DNA of 63,685 nt, filler included, from an uncultured archaeon (GCA_964442255.1; 4 parts of 4 records of this genome joined end to end with filler, not necessarily neighbours in it); one strand, 5' to 3'; counted from the whole stretch's first letter, positions 3,002 to 49,603 are shown. The notes: generated by a model from the letters alone, not told the origin. A program made the numbers and translations.

Positions 3002-3111
3002 ATATCCGGGGCTTGCTTTTGGTCAGCCCCCCTGACAGTTTCCCCAGTTTTTCCATGTCCTCAACCGCCACCCAATGTCCGGGGCTTGCTTTTGGTCAGC
3101 TCCCCTGACAG
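3002..3111. repeat. Repeat-insert-repeat unit: 37-bp direct repeats (3002-3038, 3075-3111) around a 36-bp unique segment
   Basis: atatccggggcttgcttttggtcagcccccctgacag vs atgtccggggcttgcttttggtcagctcccctgacag (2 mismatches). Internal hairpin potential (ggggct/agcccc, gtcag/ctgac). Confidence 0.85.
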
Positions 3112-3172
3112 GGTTTTCCTTTTGCAAAATATCCTTTTAAATGTTTGGGGAAGTTTTTTCTTTTAGGTTGAA

Positions 3173-3388
3173 ATGAAATCCAGGAAGCTGCCCCCTGAAG
3201 GCAAGAAAATAGTCAAACCCGAGGACAGGGTTTGGAGGGAATGGTATGACAAGCTCTCCGAGAAAGAGCACGACCAAATGCTTTCCAGGATAGGCCTTTC
3301 CGCCGATGAATTGGACGAATTCAAGCAGGAGATGAAGGAAGACCCTTTGGAGGGGGAAGCCCTCCCCCAAAAAAAAGCAAAAAAATAA
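3173..3388 (+). CDS. Hypothetical protein (71 aa)
   Basis: ATG with an upstream aggttga RBS-like motif, host-like composition, fills the intergenic space. Confidence 0.6.
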   Translation: MKSRKLPPEGKKIVKPEDRVWREWYDKLSEKEHDQMLSRIGLSADELDEFKQEMKEDPLEGEALPQKKAKK

Positions 3389-3395
3389 GTAAGCC

Positions 3396-3755
3396 TCAGT
3401 CCTCAACCTTCAGCCCCAACTTCTTTTTGTGCTCCTTAAGCACGTACCTGTAATCCTGATAATGCTCAAGCACTTTTACTATAACCGGCTGTTCCCCAGG
3501 CCGTGTCATCTGTTTCTGGTAAATGTCAAAATAAAACTTTTTTGTTTCATTTGGCTGCACCTTATTCAGGCGCTTGGTTTCACTGCTTTTCAGCCCGCCC
3601 TTGTCCAGCGCCAGCTGCCTGGTTAAATTCAGCTCCAGGGAAAGGTCTTTTTCCTCTTGGCCCCTGTTGATTATTTCCACGGTCAGCGAAACAGGTGCCC
3701 TTCTCTTCAGGCTTAGCCTGTAAGGGTTAAAGTAAGTGTTGATTGAAACTGCCAT
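3396..3755 (-). CDS. Hypothetical protein, probable Ig-like beta-sandwich
   Basis: GGTGAG RBS upstream. Alternating beta-strand pattern (LTVEIINRG...VQPNETKKFYFDI). Confidence 0.7.
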   Translation of the reverse strand: MAVSINTYFNPYRLSLKRRAPVSLTVEIINRGQEEKDLSLELNLTRQLALDKGGLKSSETKRLNKVQPNETKKFYFDIYQKQMTRPGEQPVIVKVLEHYQDYRYVLKEHKKKLGLKVED

Positions 3756-4188
3756 CTGCGGCTCACCCCATTAAAAAAGGTGATAAATGTTTTTTAATTA
3801 ATGGGAAAGCCTTAAATTCACTCCAAACCATTATTATGTAGATGTCACAAAGGGTCAAGTCAATCCGGAGCAGGGAGGACATTCCCGGGGAAAATTTGGT
3901 CAAGCTTACCCGGGAAAGCCTTCTTATCCCGAAAGGCAGCGGGAAATGTGGAGGGCTTGGCTTAAAAGGGCTGAATACAGGCGCCTAAGGCCCTGACCTT
4001 TAAATACAACTGCGTGCATGTCTGCCCGAGGTGCGCAACTTCTGTGAGCTGACCTTTTTAAGGCCCTGGCCTTTAACCTTAACGCCAAGAAGCCTATAAC
4101 CTAAACTTTGTTAGGTTATAGATGAATTGGCATAACCTAACAATAGATTTATAAAAACAATAAGGGTAAAATAAATAAGGTGTAAAAA

Positions 4189-4608
4189 GTGAAATACAGT
4201 TTTGATAAGAGTGCCCATTCCGTTTATACACTGAACTACCATTTTGTTCAGTGCATCAAATACAGAAGAAATGTTTTAGATTTTCCTGAAATAATTGATG
4301 AACTGAAGTCAAGAACGAAAAAGATAGCAGAGAGCTATGGCATTGATATTTTGAGCATTGAAACCGATTTAGACCATGTTCATATTCTATTCAAGTGCAA
4401 GCCACAGACTAACCTAATTAAGTTTGTGAACAATTGGAAAAGTGCAACCTCAAAAGTTCTGCAAAGAAAATTCAAAAAACAGATAAAGAGCAAGTTATGG
4501 AAAAACACTTTTTGGAGTGGAAGCTATTGTTTGATAACAACAGGGCAGACAACATTAGACCAAATAAAAAAGTATGTTGAAAGTCAAGGGAAGGGAAAAG
4601 AATTATGA
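4189..4608 (+). CDS. tnpA: IS200/IS605 Y1 HUH transposase
   Basis: HSVYTLNYHFVQCIKYRR, HUH motif DHVHIL, LWKNTFWSGSY, catalytic Tyr in KKYVESQ. Confidence 0.96.
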   Translation: MKYSFDKSAHSVYTLNYHFVQCIKYRRNVLDFPEIIDELKSRTKKIAESYGIDILSIETDLDHVHILFKCKPQTNLIKFVNNWKSATSKVLQRKFKKQIKSKLWKNTFWSGSYCLITTGQTTLDQIKKYVESQGKGKEL

Positions 4609-5759
4609 TGGCATACAAGTTTAGGTTGTATCCAACAGTTCAACAAGAACCGATGTTGCTAAAAACATTTGATTTGTGCAGGTTCACATATAACCAGCTT
4701 TTAGAAATGCTGAACAAACAAGAAAAGATAAACAGAGGAGAAATTCAGCATACTCTTGTTGCTTTGAAAAAACAACACCCAGAACTGCAAGAGGTTTATT
4801 CAAAGACTTTGCAGTATGAGTGCCATCGCTTGTTTGGCAATCTGCGAGCATTAAGCAAATTAAAAAAGCAAGGGAGAAAAGTTGGAAGGTTGCGATTCAA
4901 GGGAAAGGAGTGGTTCAAAACTATTCAGTTCAATCAATCAGGATACAAGCTAACTAAAACAGGTAAAAGGCACGATAAACTGGAGCTGTCAAAAATTGGT
5001 TCGCTGAAAATAAGATGCCACAGAAAAGTTTTAGGGAAAATAAAGCAAATAACAATCAAGAAAACTGCTGGAAAATGGTATGCAATTCTGGTAACTGATA
5101 CAGTTCGCAAACTCAAGAAAGGAACAAAAAGTTTGGGAATTGATTTGGGCATAATCAATTTTGTTGCAGACAGTGAGGGAAACAAAATCAGTTCTCCCTT
5201 ATTTTTGAAAAAGAGTTTGAACAAAATAAAACAAGCATACAAGGATTTGAGCAGAAAAAAGAAGGGAAGCAATAACAGGCAAAAAACAAGGCAAAGGCTT
5301 GGCAAGCTATTTGAAAAAGTTGAAAACCAGAGAAACGATTTTCTGCACAAGGTTTCCACTAACTACATTCAAGAATGCAATACGCTTGTTCTGGAAAAAC
5401 TGCAAATCAAAAACATGGCGAGAAAGCAAAAATATTGGAACAAGAGAAATTTTATGGATTGTTCTTGGGGCAAATTCATTTCTATGCTGAAATGCAAGGC
5501 TGAAAGTGCTGGCGTTGAAGTGCTTGAAGTGAACCCGAAGAACACAAGCAAAATGTGCAGCAATTGCGGAATGCTGCAAAAAATCCTATTATCGCAAAGA
5601 ACATACTCTTGTGAATGTGGGCTGGAAATGGATAGGGATGTAAATTCCGCTAAAAACATATTGGCTTTGGGACAAGGCTTTGTGGAGAACGAAAGCAAAG
5701 TAAGTAGTTCTATGAAGCAAGAAGCCATATCCTCAACAGGAGATGCAATCTCATGTTAG
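4605..5759 (+). CDS. tnpB: TnpB RNA-guided endonuclease
   Basis: AYKFRLYPT N-terminus, RuvC-I GIDLG, RuvC-II VLEKL, zinc finger CSNC...CECG, RuvC-III DRDVNSAKNI. All three catalytic acids are present. Confidence 0.96.
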   Translation: MMAYKFRLYPTVQQEPMLLKTFDLCRFTYNQLLEMLNKQEKINRGEIQHTLVALKKQHPELQEVYSKTLQYECHRLFGNLRALSKLKKQGRKVGRLRFKGKEWFKTIQFNQSGYKLTKTGKRHDKLELSKIGSLKIRCHRKVLGKIKQITIKKTAGKWYAILVTDTVRKLKKGTKSLGIDLGIINFVADSEGNKISSPLFLKKSLNKIKQAYKDLSRKKKGSNNRQKTRQRLGKLFEKVENQRNDFLHKVSTNYIQECNTLVLEKLQIKNMARKQKYWNKRNFMDCSWGKFISMLKCKAESAGVEVLEVNPKNTSKMCSNCGMLQKILLSQRTYSCECGLEMDRDVNSAKNILALGQGFVENESKVSSSMKQEAISSTGDAISC

Positions 5760-5790
5760 GTTATGGTAGTTCACATACAACTGCCCAATC
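5690..5790 (+). ncRNA. Predicted omegaRNA/reRNA 3' region overlapping the tnpB end; guide begins at 5775 (atacaactgcccaatc...)
   Basis: Inferred from established IS605 architecture plus the right-end hairpin and TCAC boundary seen here. The 5' boundary is not determined. Confidence 0.55.
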
Positions 5791-5910
5791 CTCTACGGGA
5801 ACTTCTACAAGCCGCACTGACCTTTGCCAAAACCCTAACCTTTAAATACAACCTTTGAATTATCTATTACCAAAGGAAAAACTTTTTTTCCCCGATGGCG
5901 GCGCAAAAAA

Positions 5911-6384
5911 ATGGCTGAATTCCCTGAATCAGAGTTAATACGAAAAACATTCATTGTCCGTGAAATGGACCTTCCCCCGAATGTGAAGCTCACCAGGCGT
6001 TCCCTGCTCCGCTGGTTTGCGCTCGGTTTTGGCTTAATCTCTGAAAAAGAATCCCGCACAACAGTGTTTGAAATCCTTGATGCACTCTTTACTTTAACGC
6101 TTTCCAAAAACCAGCCCCCCACAACGCCGGAGGTGCGGGCCTTCATTAAGGAGCGCTCAAAAAAAAAGGTTTCTGAAAAGCTTATCCGCTACCATTTGAA
6201 CAAACTAATTGGCCTCAATATCCTCCAAAGAAAGAAAATGCGCTATTCCTTCAACCCGTCCCCGAATGCGGAGCGCGAGGATTTGAAAAGTGCCTTCAAT
6301 TTCCACGTCACAAATTCCCTCCAGAAAACCGCAACAAATTTGGAGGAAGTCTTCCGCTCCCTTTCCGAGAGCTATAAAAAGTAA
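5911..6384 (+). CDS. Conserved archaeal winged-helix protein, putative regulator
   Basis: LLRWFALGFGLISEKESR and helix-turn-helix-like VSEKLIRYHLNKLIGLNIL. TATA box tttaaata at 5841-5848. Confidence 0.7.
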   Translation: MAEFPESELIRKTFIVREMDLPPNVKLTRRSLLRWFALGFGLISEKESRTTVFEILDALFTLTLSKNQPPTTPEVRAFIKERSKKKVSEKLIRYHLNKLIGLNILQRKKMRYSFNPSPNAEREDLKSAFNFHVTNSLQKTATNLEEVFRSLSESYKK

Positions 6385-6402
6385 TTCCTTCGTTTGCTTT
6401 TT

Positions 6403-7215
6403 ATGCCTGCAATAATTGTCTCAAAAACCGATTTGGCAGGATTGAACATAAAAAAACAGCTCACCGAAAACTTTTCCTTCAAGGAAACCGGAAAAGAGTT
6501 CGACGCAAACCCGGTTCTCTCAAACGGGAAACTCGAACTCTTCACAATAAACGGGGCCCAGATTTTTGCCGATTCGGTGAATCGCATTGAAACGGACCTG
6601 TTCATTTTCGCCTCCCGGCACAAGTCAGCCTCCGAAAAACCCACTTTAACAGCCCACCCCATCGGAAACTTTTCCGGGGCTGAAATGGGGGGAAAAGACT
6701 CAACTTTAATTCCCACCTCCGCCCTCGCATTAAAGTATTTCCTCCTCGCGCTCCAGGCCCGAAAGGAATCCAAAAGCCTTTCCTATGAAGTGTCCCTTGA
6801 ATGCACCCACCACGGCCCTTTCCTAACCAGGCCGGCTGTTTTCGTTGAGCTGGGCTCAAGTGAAGCGCAGTGGAAAGACGAAACCGCCGCAGAATCCGTG
6901 GCTGAAACAATATCCTCTTTTTCTCCCGCAAAAAACGATTCCAAAATTTGCATTGGCTTCGGCGGAGGCCATTACTGCCCGTCCTTCACCCAAATTGAAC
7001 TCCGCTCTGGCTTCGCTTTCTCCCACATCATGCCTAAATACGCTTTCCCTTCATTAGGCCGGGAAATAATCCGCCAAATGGTTTCCTCCACAAAGGAAAA
7101 GGTTTCCTTCGCTGTTTTGGATTGGAAGGGCCTGGGAAAGGAAAAACAAAAGCTTGCCTCCTTGTTGGAGGGGGAGGGGCTGGAAATAATCCGTTCAAAG
7201 GATATTGAAAAATAG
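6403..7215 (+). CDS. dtdA: D-aminoacyl-tRNA deacylase (archaeal DTD2)
   Basis: FASRHKS, LTAHPIGN, LECTHHGP, FVELGSSE and GFGGGHY motifs. Confidence 0.93.
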   Translation: MPAIIVSKTDLAGLNIKKQLTENFSFKETGKEFDANPVLSNGKLELFTINGAQIFADSVNRIETDLFIFASRHKSASEKPTLTAHPIGNFSGAEMGGKDSTLIPTSALALKYFLLALQARKESKSLSYEVSLECTHHGPFLTRPAVFVELGSSEAQWKDETAAESVAETISSFSPAKNDSKICIGFGGGHYCPSFTQIELRSGFAFSHIMPKYAFPSLGREIIRQMVSSTKEKVSFAVLDWKGLGKEKQKLASLLEGEGLEIIRSKDIEK

Positions 7216-7290
7216 CCGTTATGTAGAAATAAGAACCAGCGGTTCCCATAATCCAAAGCCTGCCGGATAACCTGTGGTTCCATGATTAAC

Positions 7291-8349
7291 TTATAACTGC
7301 TCTGCCCATTCCCTTGTTTTTCCGAACAAAAAATATTTCTTTTTTTTCAGTTCCCCTAAATTTTTCGCGCCCACAAGGAACATCGCTGTTTTGATTTCCT
7401 TTTTTTTCTGTTCCAGATACTTTTCTGCCCCCCTTCCTTGTTTGTTACCGCCTTTTGCCTGCGCCTTCAGGGCAGGCAGCGCAATTTCGCCCAAATCCGC
7501 CCCCAAAACCATTGATTTCACCACATCCAGGCCGTTTCTTATGCCCCCGGATGCAATTATTTTGCCCTTGAAATGTTTTCTTACGGCTAAAACGCTTACC
7601 GCAGTCGGAACACCAAAATCCCAGAAAACCTTTCCCAGGCCCCTGTGCCCCCGCAGCGAGTCTATTCCTGCCCAGGAGGTTCCTCCCGCCCCCGCAACAT
7701 CAACCGCTTTTATCCCTGTTTTTTCCAGTTCCTTTGCAATTCCCGCGCTTATTCCGTGGCCCACTTCTTTCACGTAAACAGGCTTTTTTATTCCCCTGAC
7801 TGTTCGCTTAATTTCTTTTATGCAGTCCCTGAAGTCTGTGCTTCCCTCAAACTGCATTGCCTCCTGCGCAGAGTTCAGGTGCACAGCCAATGCGTCCGCG
7901 CCAACGTCTTTCAATGCATGATTCAATTCCGTGTTGCTGTATTCCCTTAACTGCGTTGCCCCGATGTTTCCGGCCAAAAAAATTCCTGGCGCAACGTCCC
8001 TCACAAAATAGGTTTCCCGCAGCTGCCGCTCCTCAAGCATTGCCCGCATGCTTCCCAACCCCATTCCAATCCCCGTCCTTTCGCACGCTTTTGCGATGTC
8101 CTTGTTTATTTTCTTCGCCCTTTCCGTTCCCCCCGTCATCCCTGAAACCATTAAAGGCGCGGAAAATTTTTTTCCAAGAAACTGCGTTTCTGTTTTCACT
8201 TCCTTTAAATCTATTTCAGGCAGCGATTTGTACTCCGGTTCAACGTCTGAAAATCCGACTTCCTCCAGCCCTGTGCTCTTTTCCCTGAACTGCACGTTTT
8301 TTGAAAGGCTGATGTTTATGTGTTCCAGTTTCCTTTTTTTTATCTTCAT
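7291..8349 (-). CDS. fni: Type 2 isopentenyl-diphosphate isomerase (IDI-2)
   Basis: RKLEHI, SGMTGG, GLGSMR, HLNSAQE, VKEVGHG, AGAGGTSW, ASGGIRNG. Confidence 0.96.
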   Translation of the reverse strand: MKIKKRKLEHINISLSKNVQFREKSTGLEEVGFSDVEPEYKSLPEIDLKEVKTETQFLGKKFSAPLMVSGMTGGTERAKKINKDIAKACERTGIGMGLGSMRAMLEERQLRETYFVRDVAPGIFLAGNIGATQLREYSNTELNHALKDVGADALAVHLNSAQEAMQFEGSTDFRDCIKEIKRTVRGIKKPVYVKEVGHGISAGIAKELEKTGIKAVDVAGAGGTSWAGIDSLRGHRGLGKVFWDFGVPTAVSVLAVRKHFKGKIIASGGIRNGLDVVKSMVLGADLGEIALPALKAQAKGGNKQGRGAEKYLEQKKKEIKTAMFLVGAKNLGELKKKKYFLFGKTREWAEQL

Positions 8350-9135
8350 TTAAAGCTTCACCCTTGTCCCAAGCGTTTTTCCGGTTAAAAGCTTTTCCAG
8401 GTTGCCTTTTTTCTCCAGGTTAAATATAACCGCGTCAGTCCCTTTTAACGTTTTCTTGAGTTCCGTAAGCTTTCCCCGCATTCCGCCGGTTACATCCACT
8501 GCCCTTGAGCCCTTTGCATTTTCAAGAACCGGGTTGAAGTTCTTGCGGTTTATTTCCTTCAAAACCCTTCCTTTCCTGTCCTTTACGCCCTCAACATCCG
8601 TCCCAAGCAAAAATTTTTCCGGCTTGAGCCTTTTTGCAATCTCCGCGGCAATCCGGTCCCCTGAAATTACGCTTGCCCCAAGCCTTTCATCCAAAACCAT
8701 GTCCCCGTACAGCAGCGGGATAATGCCTTTCTTCATTCCCAGGAGCCCTTTTATCAGCCGAATGTCGAAGCTTTTGGTTTTCTTGTTTTTTTGCGCCGCT
8801 ATTGTTGCGGGCATTATCGGGAATGGAAGCATTCCCTGTTTTTCCATTTCATCCACAAAAACCCCGTTCAGTTTCCTGCAGGAGTTAACGGTTTTCACAA
8901 ACCCTTCAGCCCGCTTCGCGTTCTTCACCCCGTTGTTTATTCCGTATTTTTTCACCATTGAATGCCCGTACGGCCCTGCGCCGTGAACCAGAACCAAATC
9001 AAATTTTTTCTTTTTTTTTGCCTCCTTAATCTCGCGCACCATCCTTTTGATTACAGCTTTCCTTGCTTTCGCCCTGTTTTTCTTTTTCTCTGTGCACACG
9101 CTGCCCCCGGCCTTCAGCACAACCAAACCTTTCAT
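8350..9135 (-). CDS. ipk: Isopentenyl phosphate kinase
   Basis: LKAGGS, VHGAGPYGH, YGDMV, ISGD, DVTGGMRGK. Start set at the ATGA overlap at 9135. Confidence 0.93.
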   Translation of the reverse strand: MKGLVVLKAGGSVCTEKKKNRAKARKAVIKRMVREIKEAKKKKKFDLVLVHGAGPYGHSMVKKYGINNGVKNAKRAEGFVKTVNSCRKLNGVFVDEMEKQGMLPFPIMPATIAAQKNKKTKSFDIRLIKGLLGMKKGIIPLLYGDMVLDERLGASVISGDRIAAEIAKRLKPEKFLLGTDVEGVKDRKGRVLKEINRKNFNPVLENAKGSRAVDVTGGMRGKLTELKKTLKGTDAVIFNLEKKGNLEKLLTGKTLGTRVKL

Positions 9136-9524
9136 TTGATTTTCACTTTTTCTTTTTCCGAATCCACTTCTACAGTCATTCCGTTTTCCAGTCCCCTTAA
9201 GTCCACCTTGTCCATGCATGGAATCTCCGAGATAATCGCCCCCACAGCCACAATCGGATCGGTTTCCCCGTTGATGATTGCGGCGGGCGCAACCCCTTTC
9301 TTTTTTGCCATGTACAGCGCGTATGAGCCCACCGTTGAGCCCTTTCCTTTCGGAAAAACCAGCACTTTTCCCTTAAAGCTTTTTCCCTCCAGGGGATGCC
9401 CCTTTTCAATAACTGTGCCGGTTTCCGGGTTTGTGCCCCCGTAAAAGGAAATCCCTTCACCTGATTTCAGCACTTCTCCCCGCGCTTTTCCCCCGAAAAT
9501 TTTTCTTCCCTTTAATTCCTTCAT
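9132..9524 (-). CDS. Phosphomevalonate dehydratase small subunit (aconitase X swivel, DUF126)
   Basis: ISFYGG, GHPLEG, FPKGKGSTVGSY, DPIVAVGAIISEIP. Adjacent to the large subunit. Confidence 0.92.
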   Translation of the reverse strand: MKELKGRKIFGGKARGEVLKSGEGISFYGGTNPETGTVIEKGHPLEGKSFKGKVLVFPKGKGSTVGSYALYMAKKKGVAPAAIINGETDPIVAVGAIISEIPCMDKVDLRGLENGMTVEVDSEKEKVKIK

Positions 9525-9596
9525 ATAAACCCTTTTCCTTCCTTCTTTCCCTTAATTTTCCGGCTTCCCCCTCTTTTTTTCTTCCAGCCAATCATT

Positions 9597-10769
9597 TTAC
9601 TTTAACGCCTCTTCCACGCATTCCCTTAAACTCATGATTTTGACCTTGAATGCATTCACCCCTCTGCCGTAGTAGCAGGCTTTCGCGGAATTTGTTGCCA
9701 GAACGCTGAACCGGCCCTTCAATGGCGCGACAACCATGCACGTGTCACAGGCAAACTTCGCCCCTGTTCCCTCTATTTTCTGCGCAATTCCTTTCTTTTC
9801 CGCCAGCTCTTTTGTTTTCCTTGCAGTGGTAATCCACATCTCTTTTTTCACTTTTTTTCCTTCAAGCATTCCTGCGATTTCCTTCAATTCCCCCAAACTT
9901 GCGTGCGGGCACCCTACACTCACAAAATCCACTTCCCCTTCGTCATTCAGTTCCCTTAAAGTCTTTTCAATTTCCCATTCCGTCACTTCCACTTTTTCTT
10001 CCGGCTCTTTTGTTTCATTCGGCGTAAGGCCTTCCATGTGAAAGAGTGCGGTGCCACCAAATGTTGCGAGCGACGCGCCAAAGCTTTTCAGCCCCTCAAG
10101 CGAAGCCCCTTCCGTCCCTGTAATGAATGGAATCTTGTTCCCGATTTTTTTTCCAATCGCTTTTCCCAGCGCACCAAATTTCACAACGTCATTCATTTCC
10201 GCCTTCACTTCCACTTTTACCTGCGCCTGCCTGTTTTCCTCCAAATGCATTCCATACTCTGCTGTCCTTCCCGTTAAAGCTGCGCTTAATGCGCTTGGAC
10301 CTCCCTCCCTGTTTGTTTTCGCGCCAAGCACAGAGTTTGCGTAAACCACGGCCGAACTTTCGCTCCACGCGATGTGTTCTCCTTTTTTCGGCGAATTTCC
10401 AACCAGGTAGGGGGTGCAGGTGCAGCTTGCCTGAATTCCCATTTTTTCAAAAGCGTCCAGCACTTTTTTTTGCTTTTTCGCAAACTCTTCGCTTATCCCC
10501 AGATTTTTCCAGTTCTCCAAATCCATTCCCGCGGGGTTTAGCGTAGTTAAGACTTTTACTTTCCCGTCTTCTGCCATTTCCTCCAGAAACTTTAATCCCG
10601 CGTCCCCCAAATTTTTATAGCTTACCCCTGCAACCTGCACTGACCCGACAGGAATGAGCCTTTTTGCGCCGTAAATTTTTCCAAGCGCGGTGATGATTTC
10701 CATTGCCTTTTTGACTGCTTTTCCCTGCCTTCCTTCAAGCATTTCCTTTTCTTTAGGGGTTAATTCCAT
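9597..10769 (-). CDS. Phosphomevalonate dehydratase large subunit (aconitase X, DUF521)
   Basis: QVAGVSYKNLG, TTLNPAG, CTCTPY, AWSESSA, TNREGGP, GCPH and DTCMVV with the Fe-S cysteines. Confidence 0.93.
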   Translation of the reverse strand: MELTPKEKEMLEGRQGKAVKKAMEIITALGKIYGAKRLIPVGSVQVAGVSYKNLGDAGLKFLEEMAEDGKVKVLTTLNPAGMDLENWKNLGISEEFAKKQKKVLDAFEKMGIQASCTCTPYLVGNSPKKGEHIAWSESSAVVYANSVLGAKTNREGGPSALSAALTGRTAEYGMHLEENRQAQVKVEVKAEMNDVVKFGALGKAIGKKIGNKIPFITGTEGASLEGLKSFGASLATFGGTALFHMEGLTPNETKEPEEKVEVTEWEIEKTLRELNDEGEVDFVSVGCPHASLGELKEIAGMLEGKKVKKEMWITTARKTKELAEKKGIAQKIEGTGAKFACDTCMVVAPLKGRFSVLATNSAKACYYGRGVNAFKVKIMSLRECVEEALK

Positions 10770-10789
10770 AAAAACCACCCAAATTTTTT

Positions 10790-12100
10790 TCATTCATTGG
10801 ATCCTTCAGCCAAAAACTTTTTTGAATCCATTTCCGGAAATCCGGCCTTAACCATTTTGTCTTTCCTGTTTAAGGGCATTGTGCAGTCAAAACCCAGTTT
10901 GGTTGTTTTCCTGCTCTCAAAGTCTGCGCTCGGGTCCAGCGAAGAGCCTTTTTCCCCTTTCCTTAGCGCCAAATCCTTGTCCCCCTGAAAGCGCGTTGCA
11001 AAAGCCCATTCCACTTCCCTTTCATCAAACAAGTCAATGTCTTCGTCCACTATCCACACGTGCTTCATTGATTTATGCCCTTTGAAGGCGGCTTCAATCG
11101 CTTTTTTTCCGTCCTCTTCCTTTTCCTTTTTTATCTGCACTACCCCGTGCAGCCACGAGCATCCCCCCAAGCTTATGCCGGCATTCCTGCATGTGCACAC
11201 CTTGTTCACTTCCCTGTAAATGGTGGGCTCTTTGGGCAGGCCCATGAGGAGCTTGTGTTCCATCATTCCGGGAAGGAGGGCATGCCATATTGCGTTTTTC
11301 CTGTGGGTTACTTTTTTTACCTCAAAAACCGGCTGCTTTCTTACAATGTCGTATGTTTCAGTAAGATCCACAAAAGGCCCTTCCTTTTCCTCTTCTTTCA
11401 GAATCCTTCCCTCCAAAACGAATTCGCTGTCCGCGGGCACCAAAACACTCGAGCTTTTTGCCTTCACCACTTCCAGTTCCTCCAAAGAGTTTGCGATGTG
11501 CGTTTCGTCTTCCCCTAATTCCACGGATGTTGCCGCCGCAAGCAAAACGTTTGCTCCGTTTCCCACGCTTAACGCCACATCCAGTTCCCCGCCATTTCGT
11601 TCAATGAATTCGTGGAGGTGCCTTGGGAGGATCCTGACCGAAAACCTTTTTTTGTCCAATTGCATGCACCGGTGGAAGCTCATGTTCTGCCCCATTTCTT
11701 CATCCCCTGCAATCATGACCCCTGAACTCACGTAGTTTCCGCCGTCTTTTTCGCAGTGGAAAAGTATTGGCAGCCTGTTGAGATCCACGCCTTCTTCCAC
11801 CACCTCCTGGCACGCGCCTTTTCCAACTTCTTCCGGTTTTGTGGGGGAGTCAATCGCTTTCACCATTTTTTTCAGCAGCGCTTCTTTCCTTAACCCGAAG
11901 TATTCCGCAATGAGTTCGCGCGTGGAAAAAATGTTTCCGGCAACAGGGAATTCCGATTCCTTTACGTTTTCAAATTTCAGCGGCTGTTCCTTCAGCCCGT
12001 GCATCAGCCCCGCGATTTCCAGTTTTTTTGAAATCCCTTCCCCCACTTTCTTTGTTTTTCCGTCTTTTTCCAGCCTTTCCAGAAACCCGCGGAAACTCAT
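10790..12100 (-). CDS. UbiD-family decarboxylase, probably trans-anhydromevalonate-phosphate decarboxylase
   Basis: DGGNYVSSG, NMSFHR, EGPFVDLTETYD, EHKLLMG, VDEDID, SSLDPS. Substrate assigned from operon context. Confidence 0.9.
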   Translation of the reverse strand: MSFRGFLERLEKDGKTKKVGEGISKKLEIAGLMHGLKEQPLKFENVKESEFPVAGNIFSTRELIAEYFGLRKEALLKKMVKAIDSPTKPEEVGKGACQEVVEEGVDLNRLPILFHCEKDGGNYVSSGVMIAGDEEMGQNMSFHRCMQLDKKRFSVRILPRHLHEFIERNGGELDVALSVGNGANVLLAAATSVELGEDETHIANSLEELEVVKAKSSSVLVPADSEFVLEGRILKEEEKEGPFVDLTETYDIVRKQPVFEVKKVTHRKNAIWHALLPGMMEHKLLMGLPKEPTIYREVNKVCTCRNAGISLGGCSWLHGVVQIKKEKEEDGKKAIEAAFKGHKSMKHVWIVDEDIDLFDEREVEWAFATRFQGDKDLALRKGEKGSSLDPSADFESRKTTKLGFDCTMPLNRKDKMVKAGFPEMDSKKFLAEGSNE

Positions 12101-41325: not shown

Positions 41326-41435
41326 TGCTTTATTAGAGACCTTTTCCCCTATTTAAAGTTTTCCGGTTTAAAAAACAAATAAAAGGGGCCAAGGGAAAGG
41401 GGGCTTTTCCCCTAAGCCTTTTTTTGGGGTTGCTT

Positions 41436-43565
41436 TTATTCAAGTATTTTTGGATAGGGAGGCTCTTGTCCTTCCGCCAGGACCAGTTCCTTTAATTCCG
41501 CCAAATCCGTCAACGAGTTCAGCAGAATCCTGTTGTTGGAGACTGTGTACAGGATGTTTCCGATGAACAGGGACCTCTGCACCTCATAGCCTCCGCCGTA
41601 GTAATACCAGCCTGACTTCAGGAAAGAATCGTTGTCTTCAATGTGCGTAATCCTTCCCCTGAATTCAAACCCGTTCTCCAAGCTGAGGTTGTACACGTAG
41701 GCCCCCTGGAACACGTAATCCCCGTACAGCGGCCTTCCCCAGTTGTCCAGTGTTTTCTGGTCTTCGGGAATCTCCGCCAACTGAATTGGCAGCACAAGCA
41801 ACCCTGTTTCTTTGTCAAACAGGAAAGCCTTGTGGTCGTGCAGTGCATAGGACTCTGTTCCGCGGTCTCCAATCACTTCCACCCACAATTCCTTCGGGTT
41901 CTCCACATCACTTACATCAAATAACGCTATTTTCACTCCCTGGTACCACGCAAAGTCCCCTTCTTTGGCCGGAATTGAGTCTTTTCCCACTCCAATCAAA
42001 TGCGTTTCATCAAAGGGATGCAAATAATCGGAGTATCCGGGAATCTTCAGTTTTCCCAAAACTCTCGGATTGTATGGGTCGCTTAAGTCTATCACAAACA
42101 ACGGGTCGACTTTCTTGAAAGTCACAAGATAGCCTTTTTCGCCCATGAACCTCGCCGAGTAAATGCTTTCGCCTGGCGCAAGGCCCTCAATTTTTCCTCG
42201 CATTTCCATGTTTTCCCCGAAAATGTAGACATTGTTTGACGTGCTTCCGCCAACTCCTGTAAAGTCCCTGCTTGTTGTCGCTATCCTGAAGTTTTCTTCA
42301 AATTCGTCCATGGAAAACTGGTTTAAAACCGTTCCGGGTGCGGACATTTTTCCGGTGTAGCCAATGTTTCCGTTGTCCAAAGAAAACTTGTGGATTACTG
42401 TTTCCTGCCTTGCTTCCCTTGGCGCAGGCGCAATTTCTTCAATTAATGGCCTCACCCCGAAAGTGTGCTGGTACTGTGCAAGATACAAATTTTCCTGCGA
42501 TGCGTAAACGTTCTGCCCCGAACCCACAACCGTTTCTTTTCGTATTTCCCTGCCAAGGTCTTCCATTGAAACCGACGCAATTGTCACAAAGCTTTCCGCG
42601 ACAACCGGTTCAATGTAGCCGATTTCCGTGCAGCGGGCGATTGGCTTTAATTCAACATCTTCATCCTCTTCTCCTTCTTCCAGTTCCCTGTACAATGGAA
42701 CAAGCCCTGCACAGTCTTCTTCGCTTGCCACGGGCTTTTCAATTACTTCCTGCAACAACCAGTAATGCGGGTAAGCGTTGACAACAAAGTAAACGTTTCC
42801 GCCGATTTTTCTTGAACTAACGTAATTTCCTTCTAATTCAACCGTCCTCTTTAGCTCCGGGTTTTTCTTGTCTGAAATGTCCCATAACTGAACCGCAGTC
42901 AAATTAATTGACGGCCTGTATTCAGGGGGCATTACAGGCATTATTTTTTCCGAGATGGTGCCTGTGGTGGTGCCAGCCTGCGGCGCAACCGCTTCCCCTG
43001 CCGAAGTGACAATTTCTTCAACTGCCCCGCCTGAACCTTTTGTTTCTTCAGCCAAAGGCATTGGCAGCGGCATGCCGTATTCCCTGTAAGTTGAGCCGAA
43101 TACAAGCAAAGTGTTTTTGTGAATGAATATTTCGCTTGGGTGCACTTCACCTAATTCGGTTATTGAAAGCACTTTTGAGGCGACCGCGGGATATGCTTCC
43201 GCGATAGCCAGCTTTTGGCTGGAAAGCGTGTAAATGTATTTTCCGTCTGTTTTCATTATGTCCGCTTCATCCACCCCTTCAACCTGTATATTGGTTTCAG
43301 AGTATCTTGTGCCGGAATCCCCTGCACCTGAATCAGCTTCTGAGCCTGCCTTTGCCCCTGCATCCATTGCAGTTGGCGCAATTGCCTGTTTCATTGCCCC
43401 AAAGCTTCTTCCGTAATTTCTGCTTTCCTTGAAAGCCTCAATTAATTCTGCCCCGGATGAAAACCTTGGAATGTCCGTCCCTTCTGCGGGAGGACGGATT
43501 CCGGTGCATCCAAGCAGCACCAATGCAAACAAAAACAATAATCCAGTCACCGCAAACCTGTCCAT
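41436..43565 (-). CDS. Secreted beta-propeller domain lipoprotein
   Basis: LLGC lipobox; YSETNIQVEGVDEADIMKTDG, LNQFSMDE, VTFKKVDPLFVIDL, GKLKIPGYSDYLHP. Confidence 0.88.
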   Translation of the reverse strand: MDRFAVTGLLFLFALVLLGCTGIRPPAEGTDIPRFSSGAELIEAFKESRNYGRSFGAMKQAIAPTAMDAGAKAGSEADSGAGDSGTRYSETNIQVEGVDEADIMKTDGKYIYTLSSQKLAIAEAYPAVASKVLSITELGEVHPSEIFIHKNTLLVFGSTYREYGMPLPMPLAEETKGSGGAVEEIVTSAGEAVAPQAGTTTGTISEKIMPVMPPEYRPSINLTAVQLWDISDKKNPELKRTVELEGNYVSSRKIGGNVYFVVNAYPHYWLLQEVIEKPVASEEDCAGLVPLYRELEEGEEDEDVELKPIARCTEIGYIEPVVAESFVTIASVSMEDLGREIRKETVVGSGQNVYASQENLYLAQYQHTFGVRPLIEEIAPAPREARQETVIHKFSLDNGNIGYTGKMSAPGTVLNQFSMDEFEENFRIATTSRDFTGVGGSTSNNVYIFGENMEMRGKIEGLAPGESIYSARFMGEKGYLVTFKKVDPLFVIDLSDPYNPRVLGKLKIPGYSDYLHPFDETHLIGVGKDSIPAKEGDFAWYQGVKIALFDVSDVENPKELWVEVIGDRGTESYALHDHKAFLFDKETGLLVLPIQLAEIPEDQKTLDNWGRPLYGDYVFQGAYVYNLSLENGFEFRGRITHIEDNDSFLKSGWYYYGGGYEVQRSLFIGNILYTVSNNRILLNSLTDLAELKELVLAEGQEPPYPKILE

Positions 43566-43655
43566 TTGATTACCTCCAAAACCGTTTTACTTACCCTATG
43601 CACTTTCCCTGCTTTTAAGGTTTTCTTTTAATTAGGCAAAACTCTAACAACCGTT

Positions 43656-44711
43656 TCAGGCTTTTTTTTGCGGTTCGATGATTACCTTAATTGACTCTTC
43701 GGCTTCTTCCACTAACTTGAATCCTTCGCCTGTGTCCTTTAAGGGGAGCCTGTGCGTTATCATGTCCTTTACGTTGACCTTTTTTTCCGCAATCAGCCTT
43801 AACGCTTCCTCCAAATCCTCTTTCACGGCAGCGTAAGAGGTTGTTAAAGTTGCGCATTTGAACCAGAAATCGTTTACAGGCAGCTTCACTTCAGCACCCG
43901 GGCCGGGGGGCGCGAAGAGCAGAATGTTTCCGCCCCTTTCCACCAAATCAAATGCCTGGTCTATTGCAGGCATTGCCCCCGTGCTGACTATAACCAAGTC
44001 AGCCAAACGGTTTTCGTTTTCCTTCAGCAGTTCGCCTTTCACGTCCTCGTCCGCGTTCCAAACCCTGTCCGCACCGAAATTTTTTGCCGCCCTTATCCTG
44101 AATTCATTCACGTCTGTCGCAAAAACTTTTTTTGCTTCCCTGGCTTTCGCGAGCTGAATGTGCAGTAATCCGGAAATTCCGCTTCCCAGCACAAGCACAG
44201 AGAGGTCTTCCCTTATTTCCGCAAGCCTTTGCCCCCGCACAGCGCAACCCAATGGCTCCACAAAAGTGCCTTCCTCGAATGAAACGTTTTCCGGAAGCTT
44301 TAGTGTGCCGGTTTCCACGTTTATTTTCGGCACCCTGACGTACTCGGAAAAGCCTCCCGGAAAAAATTTTGTTGTCCGCAGGGTGTCGCAGACTGTTTCC
44401 CTGCCTTTTTTGCAGTACCTGCATTTTCCGCACGGCACGTGGTGCGTTGCCACAACCCTGTCGCCTTTTTTTATTCCTTCCGCCTGCACCGCGTCCTCCA
44501 CTGTTCCCGCAATTTCGTGTCCAAGCACAAGGGGCGCTTTTTTTATGCGGTACCATTCCATTACGTCGCTTCCGCAGATTCCCGAAGCCATCACCTTAAC
44601 CAGAATCTCCCCGTCCGCTATGTCCGGCTTGGGAATTTCTTCTTCCACTATGTTTTTGTTGTTGTAGTACATTGCGACGCGCATTCTGGTTTCACCCAAA
44701 AAGAGTTTCAT
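43656..44711 (-). CDS. Zinc-dependent alcohol/polyol dehydrogenase
   Basis: GICGSD, GHE, C..C..C...C structural zinc site, EPLGC, GSGISG. Confidence 0.92.
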   Translation of the reverse strand: MKLFLGETRMRVAMYYNNKNIVEEEIPKPDIADGEILVKVMASGICGSDVMEWYRIKKAPLVLGHEIAGTVEDAVQAEGIKKGDRVVATHHVPCGKCRYCKKGRETVCDTLRTTKFFPGGFSEYVRVPKINVETGTLKLPENVSFEEGTFVEPLGCAVRGQRLAEIREDLSVLVLGSGISGLLHIQLAKAREAKKVFATDVNEFRIRAAKNFGADRVWNADEDVKGELLKENENRLADLVIVSTGAMPAIDQAFDLVERGGNILLFAPPGPGAEVKLPVNDFWFKCATLTTSYAAVKEDLEEALRLIAEKKVNVKDMITHRLPLKDTGEGFKLVEEAEESIKVIIEPQKKA

Positions 44712-45496
44712 TCTTTTTTGGCTTTTTCAAATACTTCAAGCGCTTCCTTTGGCGTGTGGTTGTCGTGCACAACCGCCCTGACGGCCTTAATCATTGGAAT
44801 TGCATTGGGCGACTGCCAGATGTTTCTCCCCATGTCAACCCCCACTGCGCCTTTCTGTATTGCGTCGTAAGCCATCTTCAGCGCGTCCAGCTCTGTTTCA
44901 AGTTTTGGCCCGCCTGCAATCACCAAAGGGACAGGGCATCCTTCAACAACTTTTTCAAAGCCTTCGCAGTAATAGGTTTTCACAAAGCTTGCGCCAAATT
45001 CCGCCGCAATCCTGCAGCACAACCCAAGGTAACGTGCATCTCGCTTTTCCAGTTCCTTGCCTACAGCGGTTACAGCCAATACAGGCATCCCCGCTTTTTC
45101 GCCTTCATCAACCAGCTTTGCCAGATTTAATATGGTCTGCTTTTCGTGCACTGTTCCCACAAAAATTGATAACGCGACAGCCGAAGCGTTCAGCCTTACC
45201 GCGTCTTCCATGGAGGTCGCAATTCCTTCATCTGAAAGGTCTTTTCCAATGACACTTGTTCCCCCTGAAACCCTTAAAACCACTGGAACCTTTTCCTGCG
45301 GATCAAAGCAGTTCCTCAGCACCCCGCGGGAAAGCATTAACGCATCAGCATAGGGAATCAGCGGCTTGATTGTTTCGCCCGGCTTTTCAAGCATTCTTGT
45401 TGGACCCAAAAAATACCCGTGGTCCAGTGCCAGCATTACGGTGTGCCCGTCTTTTTGAATTATCCGTGAAAGCCTGTTTTTTTTGCCCCAACTCAT
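44708..45496 (-). CDS. lsrF: LsrF-like thiolase / class I aldolase (DhnA family)
   Basis: MSWGKKNRL, LALDHGYFLGPT, AVTAVGK, VKTYYC, IAGG, GVDMGRNIWQ. Confidence 0.85.
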   Translation of the reverse strand: MSWGKKNRLSRIIQKDGHTVMLALDHGYFLGPTRMLEKPGETIKPLIPYADALMLSRGVLRNCFDPQEKVPVVLRVSGGTSVIGKDLSDEGIATSMEDAVRLNASAVALSIFVGTVHEKQTILNLAKLVDEGEKAGMPVLAVTAVGKELEKRDARYLGLCCRIAAEFGASFVKTYYCEGFEKVVEGCPVPLVIAGGPKLETELDALKMAYDAIQKGAVGVDMGRNIWQSPNAIPMIKAVRAVVHDNHTPKEALEVFEKAKKE

Positions 45497-45700
45497 TTAT
45501 TTAACCTCCTTTAAACCATAAGAAATCAGTATAAAAGCAATAAAAAGCTAATGGAGAAAAGAAATGGGAAAGTTGCCCCGGAAAAAGTTTTTGGGGCTTT
45601 TTTTTGTTCAACTAAAGAAAAAAGGGAATGGAAAAAGAAGTATTATTCAAAGAGAAGAAAAATTTGGGTTAAACATCATTAACCCTTTTTTTCAATTTCA

Positions 45701-45909
45701 CGCCCTGGACGGGAATTGAACCCGCGTCACAGCCTTGCTGCAAACCCTCCTTAAGGGAGGCATCGAAAACCTTTGTTCCAGTCTCCCTGAAACTTAAGGG
45801 AGGCACCGAACGGGAGGTTCGGGTTTATTCCCCCAAACTTAAGGGAGGCATCGAAACTGCAGGTTCTGATTCCGACAGGGCTGTATCCTAACCACTAGAC
45901 TACCAGGGC
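45701..45909 (-). tRNA. tRNA-Asp(GTC) with a 137-nt intron at position 37/38 (intron 45736-45872)
   Basis: Acceptor GCCCTGG/CCAGGGC, anticodon stem CAGCC/GGCTG, loop CT-GTC-G|A, T-arm GCGGG-TTCAATT-CCCGT. BHB central helix CTGT/GCAG with 3-nt bulges. Confidence 0.93.
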
Positions 45910-45985
45910 AGATTTGTCTCTGCCAGATTAATTCTTTCACAAGAATGTTTAATAAATTTTGCCGTTTAGCCCAAAACAGGCTTTT

Positions 45986-47548
45986 TTAAGAGGCAATTAT
46001 TTTAATTGGCTGCCCAACCGGCTTTTCCGGGGTTTCTTCCGGCCCAGGCAAAGGGAAATGCGCTGCATTGTATGCCTTGAACACGTCAATTATCCCGTGT
46101 CCCATGAATTCGTCCCAGTTGTTTCCTTTTTCCGTAGACTGAATTATCGGGTCAATGTCTTTATGCGGGTTGGTGCTTGTTTTTGGTTTCGTGTTGCTTT
46201 CAATGATTTCCTTCACTTCCTCCGGCGCAAGACCCGGGTTTTTGTTTAGTATTATTGCCGCAAGAGATGAAACGTGCGGCGCTGACATGCTTGTCCCTGA
46301 AAACCAGGTGTAGTATTCTCCTCCGTTGCAGGTTAAATCCGCGTTTCCTTCTAAGGGGTAGCAGGAGTAAGTTGAAAGCACTCCTCCTCCCGGAGCCATT
46401 ACATCCAGCGCCTCTCCGTAATTGCTGAAGCACGCCCTTCTTCCGGCATTGGTTGTTTCATCCACGCATGCCTGTGTGCAGGTTCCGTTCAGGCAAAACC
46501 CTCTTTCGCCTATGTCGTCATGGTATACTGCGCCAACTGCGATTACTTTTGAGCCGCATGCAGGGCTGCTTACACCGGAATTTTCGTTTCCGGCTGAAGC
46601 CACCACCACTATTCCCTGCTCTACTGCCTGGTTTGCCTTGTCAGCCAGATATTCCCCGTCGCAGTGGCCGGGATAGTTTCCGCCTCCAAGGCTTAAGTTT
46701 ATTACGTCCATTCCGTTTTCAACAGCCCATTCAATTGCATTGGCAATGTCCCATGCATGGCAGTAACCGTCTTCATTGCATACTTTAAGTGAATAAATTT
46801 CCGGGCCAGAGTAAACGCCTTTCGCGTAATCAGGTGAAGGAAAACCGTATTCGTTTTCCACTTCAGTTAAGCCAAAGCCCGTGATTATCCCAATTACGTT
46901 TGTTCCGTGGCCTGCCCAGTCCAGCGGAGTCTGGTCGTGAATGTACCTGCAGCTTGTCTTTGCACTGCAAAACACTTCCATTCCTGCAATTGTTTCACTT
47001 ATCTCCGAATGGTTTGGGTCAACCCCTGTGTCAATTACCGCAATCTTAACATTGTTTTCAGCACCGGCGCCTGAAGTAGTGTGGGGAATTTTTTTTCTTG
47101 GCGGAGAGCTCCAAACTTTGTCCGCGTTAAGGAATTCCGCAGCGCTTAACCCTCTTACCCTGTAAATTTTGTCTTCTTCTGCCATTCCCTTTCGCACAAG
47201 GCTTTTTGCGGTGCGGGAATCGCATTCCATTGCAATTGCATCTGAAAGCGCACCAACAATCCTGCATTTTTTGGAGCTTAAATCATTTTTATATTTTAAA
47301 TTGTCTTGCCTTAAAATTATCCTTTCTTTTCTTTCCCCTGAAAACTTTTCAGTTAAAGGGGTTACCTTAACAATCTTTTTTTCAACTTTTTTTCCGTTTT
47401 CAATTCCCACGGCATTTACAATTTCAAATGAATTAAGCCTGAGTGAATTCAAGTTAAACGGATTTAACTTCGGGTTAACGGAAAAAGCAGAGGCGGTTCC
47501 GCTGAATAAAACCAGTGCAATCAAAACCGTAATCCATTCTTTTCCCAT
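45986..47548 (-). CDS. Secreted subtilisin-like S8 serine protease
   Basis: Catalytic triad motifs IDTG, GHGT, GTSMSAPHV; signal peptide. Confidence 0.93.
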   Translation of the reverse strand: MGKEWITVLIALVLFSGTASAFSVNPKLNPFNLNSLRLNSFEIVNAVGIENGKKVEKKIVKVTPLTEKFSGERKERIILRQDNLKYKNDLSSKKCRIVGALSDAIAMECDSRTAKSLVRKGMAEEDKIYRVRGLSAAEFLNADKVWSSPPRKKIPHTTSGAGAENNVKIAVIDTGVDPNHSEISETIAGMEVFCSAKTSCRYIHDQTPLDWAGHGTNVIGIITGFGLTEVENEYGFPSPDYAKGVYSGPEIYSLKVCNEDGYCHAWDIANAIEWAVENGMDVINLSLGGGNYPGHCDGEYLADKANQAVEQGIVVVASAGNENSGVSSPACGSKVIAVGAVYHDDIGERGFCLNGTCTQACVDETTNAGRRACFSNYGEALDVMAPGGGVLSTYSCYPLEGNADLTCNGGEYYTWFSGTSMSAPHVSSLAAIILNKNPGLAPEEVKEIIESNTKPKTSTNPHKDIDPIIQSTEKGNNWDEFMGHGIIDVFKAYNAAHFPLPGPEETPEKPVGQPIKIIAS

Positions 47549-47653
47549 AAAACCACGTTATGTATAATTTATTTCTTTTATAGATAATATGAATGTTGTT
47601 TTTTTTGGATTTAATTCTTTCCAGCCAGGTTTTTATACTTGAAAAGACATAGT

Positions 47654-48593
47654 TGTTACGTGACAGCGCTTATGACTCCGTTTTTTCGCTTGTTTCTATA
47701 AACTTGGTTGGGCGTTCTGTATTTAAGGCTTGAGTGTGGCGTGTTGTTGTATTCGCGCGTAAAGCGCGCCAACAACTGGTTGGCGTGGGCAATGCTGCGC
47801 ACAGTGTAGCGGGAGAGGTATTGCTTGATTTTTTTGACTACCGCTTCTGCTTTGCCGTTGCATTTTGGGTTGTGGACGCGGGTGCGAATGTGTTTGATTC
47901 CTTTGAGTTGTGCATCAAAGTTTTTGCGGTATTGGCGGCCGTTGTCTGTTAGCATGGCTTTGAATCCGCCTGTTTGTTTTCTGGCTAACCTGAGGTTGTC
48001 GAGAGTGTTTTCAAGCGTTGACCGCTCATACGCCTTTAACGCAAACAGTTTTCTGGAAGCGTCATCCTCGTAGAATGAAAAATAACAGCGTACTCCGTGT
48101 AAAATGCGTTTTCTGCTCCAATCAGTGTGCATTAGAGACAATGCGTGTTTTCGCTCATACCGGCGTACCTTTACTTTTGGTTTTGGTTGTTCAGGAAACC
48201 ATTTTTTCTTATAACGCTGTATTGTCCTCAAACAGCGTTTTTTGAGCTTCAACCACGTTAACGTAGTTGACAGGCCTTTTGATAAAAGAGCCTTCATTTC
48301 ATCCAATAACGGTTGAATGGTCTTGTTCCAAACCCGCTTTGCGGTCCGCTTAAAGCGCATAGGCTGGCCGGATTGTTTTCGTTTCTTTCACCGGCCAAGA
48401 GTCTTTCTTGGCACTTTTATTGCCTTTTCAAACGCTCGCAAGCTCATGTCGCCCGACATGAGCCTATCCGCAATCTTTTCAACAAAATCGCTACCATACT
48501 TCATAGGGAAAACCTCCATTCCACAAACAAATAATGGAGTTTTCCCCAAAAAAACCTATTTCACAGTGGGGACATATCCGCTGTCACCAAACA
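47654..48593 (-). mobile_element. IS481-family insertion sequence (940 bp)
   Basis: TGT...ACA ends. Imperfect TIR tgttacgtgacagcgcttatg vs tgtttggtgacagcggatatg. Flanks catagt / cttagt differ by one base. Confidence 0.88.
47656..48504 (-). pseudogene. IS481 DDE transposase with an in-frame TGA at 48388-48390
   Basis: GGAGG-preceded ATG at 48504 reads MKYGSDF...VPRKTLGR*KKRKQSGQPMRFK into the rve core (HTD, DDASR, TDNG, NGKAE, YNN..PHSSL). Confidence 0.82.
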
Positions 48594-49603
48594 CTTAGTC
48601 AATGTTCCGGGAATCTTCCTTTCCCAGCCCACGGTGCAGGTTAAAGTAAAGTCTGATGTTTTTGATTCCCCGAACTATGTGCAGTTTGTTCCGCAGGCCC
48701 TTTCCCAGCATGTGAGGCAGATTCCTGAAAACAGCGGTTACTTCCTTGAAAGCTATTACACCGCAACCGGAAAATACCTTAAGACCGAGCTTTACGGCTT
48801 TGATTCAATGGGAAGCAGTGTTCCCCTGCAAAACTCTTTGACAGGCTACGGGCTTGAAGCCGAGGGAGGGGCATTGAAGGGATTTGCGGAGAACGGGTCC
48901 CCTGAAAACCTGTATTTGGGGGTAACCTCTTACAATGAAAGCGCTTATTCCAGGCTTGAAATCATTACCCCGGACGGGGTTCCGCACACTTTTAACAGCG
49001 GAACAGACTTCTTCAAGTCCGCCTATTACCCTCCGTGGAATATCTGCTCAACTTCCTTCGCAAACAGGGTTATTGCCCCTCCGTGCCAAGTGGGGCTGTA
49101 CCAGATCCACTGGTTTGATTCGGGGCTGTTCAACTTTCGCGGAATCTTCACTTCATCCGCAATCTTCATTGTACCAGATCCACTGGTTTGATTCGGGGCT
49201 GTTCAACGGCGGCCCCTTTGAATTGCGGCAGAACGCCTACTTTGACGGCTCAACCTTTACTGTAATGTTGCCTCTGCCAACGCCTGACCCTGAATCCATT
49301 ATTGAAAACAGTTCCGAAAACCCGGTGGATGTCGAGGTAACACTTAAACTCCGGAAATATTCTTCGGACTGGGCCTGGCAGGACGTGGAAGTGTTTCTGG
49401 GCAATTCCCCGAAAACAATCCCAGCATACAACTTCCTGGACTTAACCGATTATTGGAATGTTTCACAGGGGCTGAATTACGGAAGCTACCGCGCGTACCT
49501 AAAGATTACCTCCGCGGATGGGGGGAAAATTGTGAGAACAAAAAACTTTAATGTCGTGAAACCAAAGTCCCAGGAAGAACCAATGGCTCCGGTTATCCCC
49601 TGA
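48594..49603 (+). pseudogene. Truncated, frameshifted gene for a beta-rich (surface-type) protein
   Basis: The frame is open right from the IS481 end. Track ORFs 48634-49191 and 48935-49603 fuse into one frame if the 73-bp unit at 49097-49169 is removed (...LYQIHWFDSGLFNGGPFELRQ...). Confidence 0.7.
49097..49207. repeat. Repeat-insert-repeat unit: perfect 38-bp direct repeats (49097-49134, 49170-49207) around a 35-bp insert
   Basis: tgtaccagatccactggtttgattcggggctgttcaac twice; insert tttcgcggaatcttcacttcatccgcaatcttcat. Confidence 0.9.

Follow-up and report, generated by a model that had tools for sequence, protein, structure and literature searches.

How do four unrelated stretches of archaeal DNA come to share the same dimensions? 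This question is raised by a 63,685-nt stretch (filler included) from an uncultured archaeon (GCA_964442255.1), here called the window, in which loci L1-L4 all display one constant geometry: direct duplications of 37-38 nt together with inserts of 34-36 nt. We consider that L1, L4 and a mini-array at L2 are most likely footprints left by a Cas1-Cas2-type spacer integrase outside any CRISPR array, that is, neo-CRISPR units, and we give this explanation about an even chance. On this best reading the units are a natural instance of an already known type of event, ectopic spacer integration.

All four loci had been pointed out in the initial annotation, and a repeat search recovered each of them at its coordinates. 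Pairwise sequence comparison confirmed that the repeats are mutually unrelated between loci, as had been stated there. The contig joins and two gap-linked duplications, described below, had been overlooked. The window is not one molecule: it consists of four metagenome contigs, joined at 25620-25719, 51316-51415 and 61896-61995 by a six-frame-stop linker of the form N44-TTAATTAATTAA-N44. Two scaffold gaps of 100 N each are located at 15250-15349 and 56805-56904. Features spanning linkers or scaffold gaps are not contiguous DNA. Gene content is archaeal, with genes for Orc1/Cdc6, an archaeal D-aminoacyl-tRNA deacylase, an AcnX-type mevalonate pathway and P-type ATPases (Pfam).

Is the common period more than an impression? 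Ungapped scan of the window for direct repeats with periods up to 600 yielded 13 non-overlapping repeats, seven of which score at least 25; four of these seven have a period of 72-74. Five two-copy families in the window reach 33 nt and 94% identity or more, and four of the five are spaced by 72-74. In the period spectrum from 30 to 200, filtered for low complexity, 72-73 accounts for 4 of 18 hits, every other period having none or one. Under a uniform null, p = 0.008 for this concentration and p = 0.001 for three of the four strongest hits. As such concentration is improbable under the null, the recurrence of the 72-73-nt period is real. Outside coding repeats and gap artefacts, the only strong short-range direct repeats of the window have a period of 72-73 nt.

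A census of repeat periods had been proposed as a check on the initial annotation. It was run on the window and on about 1.07 Mb of control DNA from other DPANN archaea, comprising 314 kb of Cdc6-linked sequence, about 360 kb around cas1 genes and 389 kb from two genomes. In the window, hits are concentrated at 72-73; in the controls, no units with a period of 70-76 were detected outside arrays and coding repeats. The process behind the units is unusually active in this lineage.

Evidence that such a unit was added to pre-existing DNA comes from L4, which is organized as follows (38+35+38, spacing 73):

49097-49134: repeat copy 1, 38 nt, exact; part of the normal coding sequence of the disrupted gene
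49135-49169: insert, 35 nt, resembling neither flank and containing a weak 5-bp hairpin (z -3.3)
49170-49207: repeat copy 2, 38 nt, exact
48634-49603, plus strand: gene broken by L4, without detected relatives, whole once 73 nt are removed

Deletion of 49135-49207 fuses two overlapping frames, 48634-49191 and 48935-49603, into a single frame of 298 codons. Since the frame is restored by removal of these 73 nt, L4 is an insertion, composed of 35 unrelated nt and a duplicate of 38 nt from the gene. The earlier description of L4 as a frameshifting event with duplicated coding sequence is therefore correct. Relatives of the broken gene were found neither in genome contigs and metagenome contigs nor in a set of 5.8 billion proteins, which returned only the window's own 185-residue fragment. 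With no relatives to compare in these three collections, no empty alleles were seen. An IS481-like DDE transposase gene (47656-48360, minus strand) is located directly upstream of the broken gene, and this pair is flanked by two subtilase genes; the region may be variable.

L1 displays the same layout in non-exact form (37+36+37, spacing 73):

3002-3038: repeat copy 1, 37 nt, found by repeat search and present in a Logan contig of sequencing run X1 with 0 differences
3039-3074: insert, 36 nt, with no further occurrence in the window or among the fetched loci
3075-3111: repeat copy 2, 37 nt, with 2 transitions relative to copy 1

The two copies are 95% identical. Inserts of L1 and L4 and both spacers of L2 are unlike one another and unlike their own repeats, as judged by sequence comparison. 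Search of the window also addressed the possibility, raised with the initial annotation, that inserts could be of local origin: those of L1 and L4 and the two L2 spacers are not copies of adjacent sequence, and the best other match of the inserts inside the window is 12-17 nt long.

L2 is more complex, being both a small array and the site of a later insertion sequence (IS):

3974-4010: repeat 1, left third degenerate, final 26 nt near repeat 2
4011-4046: spacer 1, 36 nt
4047-4076: left part of repeat 2, 30 nt, interrupted by the IS
4077-5774, plus strand: IS200/IS605 element with tnpA (4189-4608) and tnpB (4605-5759), assigned by Pfam and NCBIfam
5775-5781: right part of repeat 2, 7 nt
5782-5815: spacer 2, 34 nt
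5816-5852: repeat 3, 37 nt

When 4077-5774 is removed in silico, repeat 2 is rejoined and the periods become 73 and 71. All three repeats end with the same 14 nt. The locus thus resembles orphan or mini CRISPR arrays in its three repeats, its two spacers of 34-36 nt, both unique, and its degenerate end repeat. It differs from them in that its repeats are diverged (26-30 of 37-38 aligned positions identical), in that an IS200/IS605 element sits inside repeat 2, and in that no array with the same repeat was found elsewhere with Rfam or in metagenome contigs. Neighbours of L2 are small genes of unknown family, the IS200/IS605 element and the tRNA deacylase gene, with no cas gene adjacent.

The IS200/IS605 element was inserted just past a TTTAA that is present in all three L2 repeats. 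Its TnpB is an ordinary IS200/IS605 TnpB. A weak match to RAGATH-18 (5679-5723, 28.9 bits, below gathering score) lies where the guide RNA of TnpB is expected; at gathering score, Rfam detects tRNA alone. Contigs of run X1 branch within the left end of the element, which may be multi-copy. We also considered the transposases themselves, TnpA and TnpB of this element and the IS481-like enzyme near L4, as makers of the units. They were rejected for wrong duplication size, because the IS200/IS605 and IS481-like families produce no target duplication or one of a few bp.

The remaining locus, L3, is ambiguous. Its parts are:

25850-25887: repeat copy 1, 38 nt, found by repeat search
25888-25922: insert, 35 nt, a copy of the flanking repeat that has diverged but keeps its register
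25923-25959: repeat copy 2, 37 nt, found by repeat search

The core of the duplication (25855-25887 and 25927-25959) is 94% identical with a spacing of 72; counted from 25850, the layout is 38+35+37. Tandem Repeats Finder describes the same stretch as three copies of period 34, and a minus-strand frame remains open through all 72 added nt. Because the insert resembles its own repeat, we count the locus as ambiguous: it may represent an integration event or a three-unit tandem repeat. Taken over all loci, a spacer-length insert between repeat-length direct duplications is found at L1 and L4, at L2 with periods of 73 and 71, and at L3 with the qualification just given. Plain tandem duplication describes L3 in part, and neither L1 nor L4.

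The units would seem to differ in age. L2 is probably the oldest, because its repeats are diverged and an IS was inserted later; L1 would be older than L4, because 2 of its 37 positions differ, and L4 would be recent, because its copies are exact.

Are the units real DNA? The window is present in two sequencing runs, X1 and X2, both labelled as microbial mat metagenome. Of the sampled words, X1 contains a fraction of 0.98, and it may be the run from which the assembly was made. X2, a different sample of the same study, contains 0.84 of the sampled words of 41000-50900, and a third run, X3, contains next to none of the window stretch. Logan contigs of X1, made by a different assembler with k = 31, were compared over 1-20000. 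From 26 to 4137 and from 4108 to 7666 they match the window with 0 differences and 0 gaps, at flank depth, and they cross both IS junctions at L2. Since these contigs match exactly, the reads contain L1, L2 and the two IS junctions, which are not assembler artefacts. Mismatches between repeat copies had earlier been taken to oppose an assembly artefact, and this argument stands, with 2 transitions at L1 and many more changes at L2. Among pieces of X2, none is listed that bridges L1, and no indels or joints are reported there, by which identity is not proven. One joint in X1, from 3550 to 15211, was set aside; the contig behind it has depth 157 and offers just 20 nt on one side, so that it reflects another organism or low complexity.

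For L3 and L4 the argument is indirect. Overlaps at the gaps suggest that the window contigs were assembled with k = 55. The 38-nt repeat is shorter than this value, so the assembler would have needed reads spanning repeat and insert. Two exact duplications in the window do belong to gaps and fall outside the family of L1-L4:

56750-56804 and 56905-56959: 55-nt exact overlap flanking a 100-N gap, assembly artefact
15121-15249: ordinary tandem array of period 74 (a repeated 71 nt and 3 nt more), abutting a 100-N gap

The former arose where two contig ends overlap at k = 55: exactly 55 nt stand on either side of a 100-N gap. The identical signature of 55 nt and 100 N was found in a NODE-named contig of another genome (L018). 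Such overlaps of de Bruijn contig ends resemble our units in being exact short-range duplications in a draft assembly. They differ in being 55 nt long and lying at N runs, whereas the duplications of L1-L4 measure 37-38 nt, lie far from gaps and contain an insert. Exact duplications of k length touching an N run are restricted to 56750-56804/56905-56959 and 15195-15249; none of L1-L4 is next to a gap. A 55-nt exact direct repeat with period 92 was also observed in another DPANN genome (L082 2-56, G255:C8), and may be either a k = 55 assembly effect or a tandem repeat.

The 15121 array occupies the promoter region that separates the thiolase gene from the HMG-CoA synthase gene. The sequence past the gap at 15250 continues the first copy, so that the structure is 71 nt + 3 nt + 71 nt, a plain tandem. 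Unitig depths in X1 are 34.3 for the unit and 20.3 for the unit-unit junction, with 8.8 and 7.8 for the flanks. These depths suggest that the real array has about three to four units, collapsed by the assembler to two and a gap. Its period may be a coincidence or a hint of a different process, to which we return below.

What kind of enzyme could produce the units? In the explanation that we favour, an integrase would join a prespacer of about 35-36 bp at two staggered target positions about 37 bp apart. Gap repair would then duplicate the ~37 bp of target, and each event would gain about 73 bp, one insert plus one additional target copy. The initial annotation, which had read the loci as possible ectopic spacer integration, is partly supported. 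Constant geometry, unrelated repeats, the insertion at L4, the mini-array at L2 and the 37-nt arrays of related genomes, described below, all speak for that proposal; L3 fits it poorly.

Passages of 10.1101/148544 and PMC6698737 attribute to Nivala et al. 2018 the finding that off-target integration gives rise to new arrays in E. coli; circumstantial evidence for two other species is mentioned as well. As far as those passages go, the window units resemble the type I-E neo-CRISPR loci of E. coli in consisting of a spacer-length insert in a repeat-length duplication of ordinary DNA, at unrelated sites, and in that such units can seed small arrays. They differ in their lengths (37-38 + 34-36 nt) and in their origin from an uncultured DPANN archaeon, as well as in their high density, in one unit breaking a gene in a natural population, and in having no integrase in view. 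The corresponding lengths of type I-E are 28 + 33. Target-site duplications of transposons and casposons share with our units the insertion between direct duplications of the target. Known ones comprise 2-15 bp, whereas those in the window comprise 37-38 bp and enclose inserts of 35 nt that have no common ends and encode nothing.

Do integrases of suitable dimensions occur in related organisms? In the phylum of the nearest Cdc6 relative, Cas1 is present in 31 of 401 sampled genomes. Twenty of 32 Cas1 places were fetched for array analysis, and arrays were found beside 18 of these 20 cas1 loci. Repeats are 36 nt long in seven arrays, 30 nt in five, 28 nt in three and 37 nt in three. The three arrays with 37-nt repeats, L051, L037 and L048, have median periods of 73, 74 and 75. 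In L051, a period of 73 occurs 20 times, 72 eight times, 74 five times and 75 twice. This array adjoins genes for Cas8b, Cas7, Cas5, Cas3, Cas1 and Cas4, and is thus of type I-B. L037 and L048 adjoin Cas12f2 with Cas1 and Cas4, Cas2 being present in L048 only, and are of type V-F. Related small archaea thus do have integrases that fit in both lengths.

The likeness of the window units to these DPANN arrays thus concerns the 37-nt repeat and the period (72-76, with a mode of 73 in L051). They differ in that the arrays contain 17-36 identical repeats beside cas1 and cas4, while each window unit comprises two or three copies, with repeats that are unrelated or decayed, and stands beside no cas gene. 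Nor does the L2 repeat bear significant likeness to the repeats of those arrays. The sole array in view for the window organism is the decayed orphan L2, and in related genomes 3 of 18 arrays combine a 37-nt repeat with a period of 73-75. By analogy with these type I-B and V-F arrays we infer that the enzyme would be of Cas1-Cas2 type.

Several observations weigh against this assignment. Profile searches with Pfam and NCBIfam revealed no cas1, cas2, cas4 or other cas gene in the window, as the initial annotation had stated, and Cas1 is found in none of the five nearest Cdc6 relatives. Where the matter is treated in PMC12988326, CRISPR-Cas is described as under-represented among DPANN archaea. 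No Rfam CRISPR repeat family matches 2900-6000 even at E <= 10, and the L2 repeat pattern gave only 3 single array-less matches in metagenome contigs, which we take as chance. Sources of the inserts were equally elusive: 28-nt cores of the L1 and L4 inserts and of both L2 spacers have no exact match in viral contigs (an insensitive search), nor do the inserts match anything in 1.09 Mb of fetched DPANN loci. No shared target motif is seen among the loci (the sites being too few for a logo), and the target sites have no significant likeness to one another or to the L2 repeat. Compared with CRISPR repeats of related genomes, the targets and the L2 repeat gave a best p = 0.0075 in 156 comparisons, which is chance level.

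Density and coverage tell in the same direction. Three or four units per 63 kb is far denser than rare misfires would give, and the 389 kb of control DNA, which comes from two Cas1-positive genomes with 37-nt repeats, holds zero units. An empty site is reconstructable at L4 only. At L3, insert and repeat align with each other in the same register (p <= 0.002). Read-based support is confined to L1 and L2 (26-7666). Finally, the near-identical period of the unrelated 74-nt tandem array is left as a coincidence.

The last of these points leads to the first alternative, which we regard as unlikely. A process without Cas1-Cas2 might add a fixed length of about 72-74 nt; a ruler-type integrase not yet described could do so, as could a pathway of repair or template switching. 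It would then account for the tandem array of period 74 as well as for the repeat-insert-repeat units. The period of the array at 15121-15249 (74, i.e. 71 + 3) is near the 72-73 of the other loci, the insert of L3 copies its own repeat, and the units are dense in a window without a cas gene; all this would be accommodated. Against it, the duplication measures 37-38 nt at L1, L3 and L4 and about 37 nt at L2, the tandem array being the sole departure. Since the duplication is this steady across loci, its own length looks fixed, and not merely the sum of duplication and insert. The inserts share neither ends nor sequence, and therefore do not constitute a transposon family. We know of no enzyme besides the CRISPR integrase that leaves a duplication of 28-38 bp, which we count against this alternative as well. 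Nor are the inserts a family of hairpin elements, a candidate that was rejected since folding of repeats and inserts is no better than that of shuffled sequences, save for the weak hairpin of the L4 insert.

Still less likely, in our view, are unrelated causes that happen to share a period, with L2 a decayed CRISPR array, L1 and L2 linked to a replication origin, L3 a tandem repeat and L4 a one-off event. L1 and L2 do sit 1-4 kb from an Orc1/Cdc6 gene (1228-2034), and archaeal origins carry repeats near such genes. L3 is readable as three units of about 36 nt, and insertion is proven for L4 alone. It would nevertheless be improbable for four independent causes to arrive at 72-73. The L1 repeat also lacks inverted or further copies, unlike usual origin boxes; as none were found for L1 and L2 in the window, the origin-box idea is retained only as part of this alternative. 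The Cdc6 relatives (22 loci) are at most 47% identical, too distant for orthologous intergenic sites.

Least probable of all is that the exact unit L4 is an artefact of library preparation or assembly: the assembly does contain others, namely the 55-nt overlap at gap 56805 and the collapsed tandem array at gap 15250, and L4, whose duplication is exact and gene-breaking, lies outside the stretch with X1 read support, yet L1 and L2, of like geometry and with diverged copies, were reproduced at flank depth by a different assembler, a 38-nt repeat below the presumed k of 55 would have called for spanning reads, NODE-named assemblies in the controls show the gap artefact and never such a unit, the source is labelled shotgun metagenome, and the second sample, X2, holds most of the sampled words around L4.

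If the units are indeed footprints of a spacer integrase, what would follow? Most demonstrations of off-target spacer integration come from E. coli that over-produces Cas1-Cas2, and clean natural footprints of it are, to our knowledge, few. The genome would offer scars of differing age: an exact, gene-breaking one, a slightly diverged one and a decayed three-repeat array. They would bear on how CRISPR arrays are born, on what adaptation machinery costs its owner and on whether small, CRISPR-poor DPANN archaea meet such integrases. It is a doubtful, if attractive, proposition that a ruler-type integrase is active, now or recently, throughout the chromosome of a DPANN archaeon in which no CRISPR-Cas locus is seen. 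Such an integrase might be an adaptation module, either stand-alone or borne on a mobile element, or else an enzyme that a host cell supplies or one of an undescribed kind. On that proposition, units of a 37-bp duplication and a ~36-bp insert would be written into this genome at about one per 15-20 kb, breaking genes and seeding CRISPR-like arrays, and array birth and the mutational cost of adaptation could be studied in a natural population. Should the genome contain no Cas1, the scars would point to an undescribed enzyme that measures about 37 bp, and their interest would be much higher.

Several other repeats were observed in the window. AT-rich palindromic motifs of about 28-30 nt, GAAACTTTT..AAAAGTTTC, are found in tandem at contig ends (25509-25596 and 51433-51463). 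Related palindromic copies occur at 15140-15199 in the thiolase promoter region, and the motifs may represent a repeat family that breaks assemblies. The 3' end of tRNA-Ala is copied over 17 nt at 51416-51432, at a distance of 70 nt from the original 3' end, and a hairpin motif lies between the two. The tRNA-Ala gene itself (51486-51578) is 93 nt long, which suggests an intron, and a LAGLIDADG-like open reading frame (51569-52066, minus strand) overlaps its 5' end. Three copies of a ~20-nt motif, AAACTTAAGGGAGGCAYCGAA, spaced 43-45 nt apart, occupy an intergenic position at 45750-45855, upstream of the gene at 44708-45496. A 24-nt tandem repeat of 3.4 copies and 98% identity (58895-58975) is located at the start of a GNAT acetyltransferase gene (58482-58967, minus strand).

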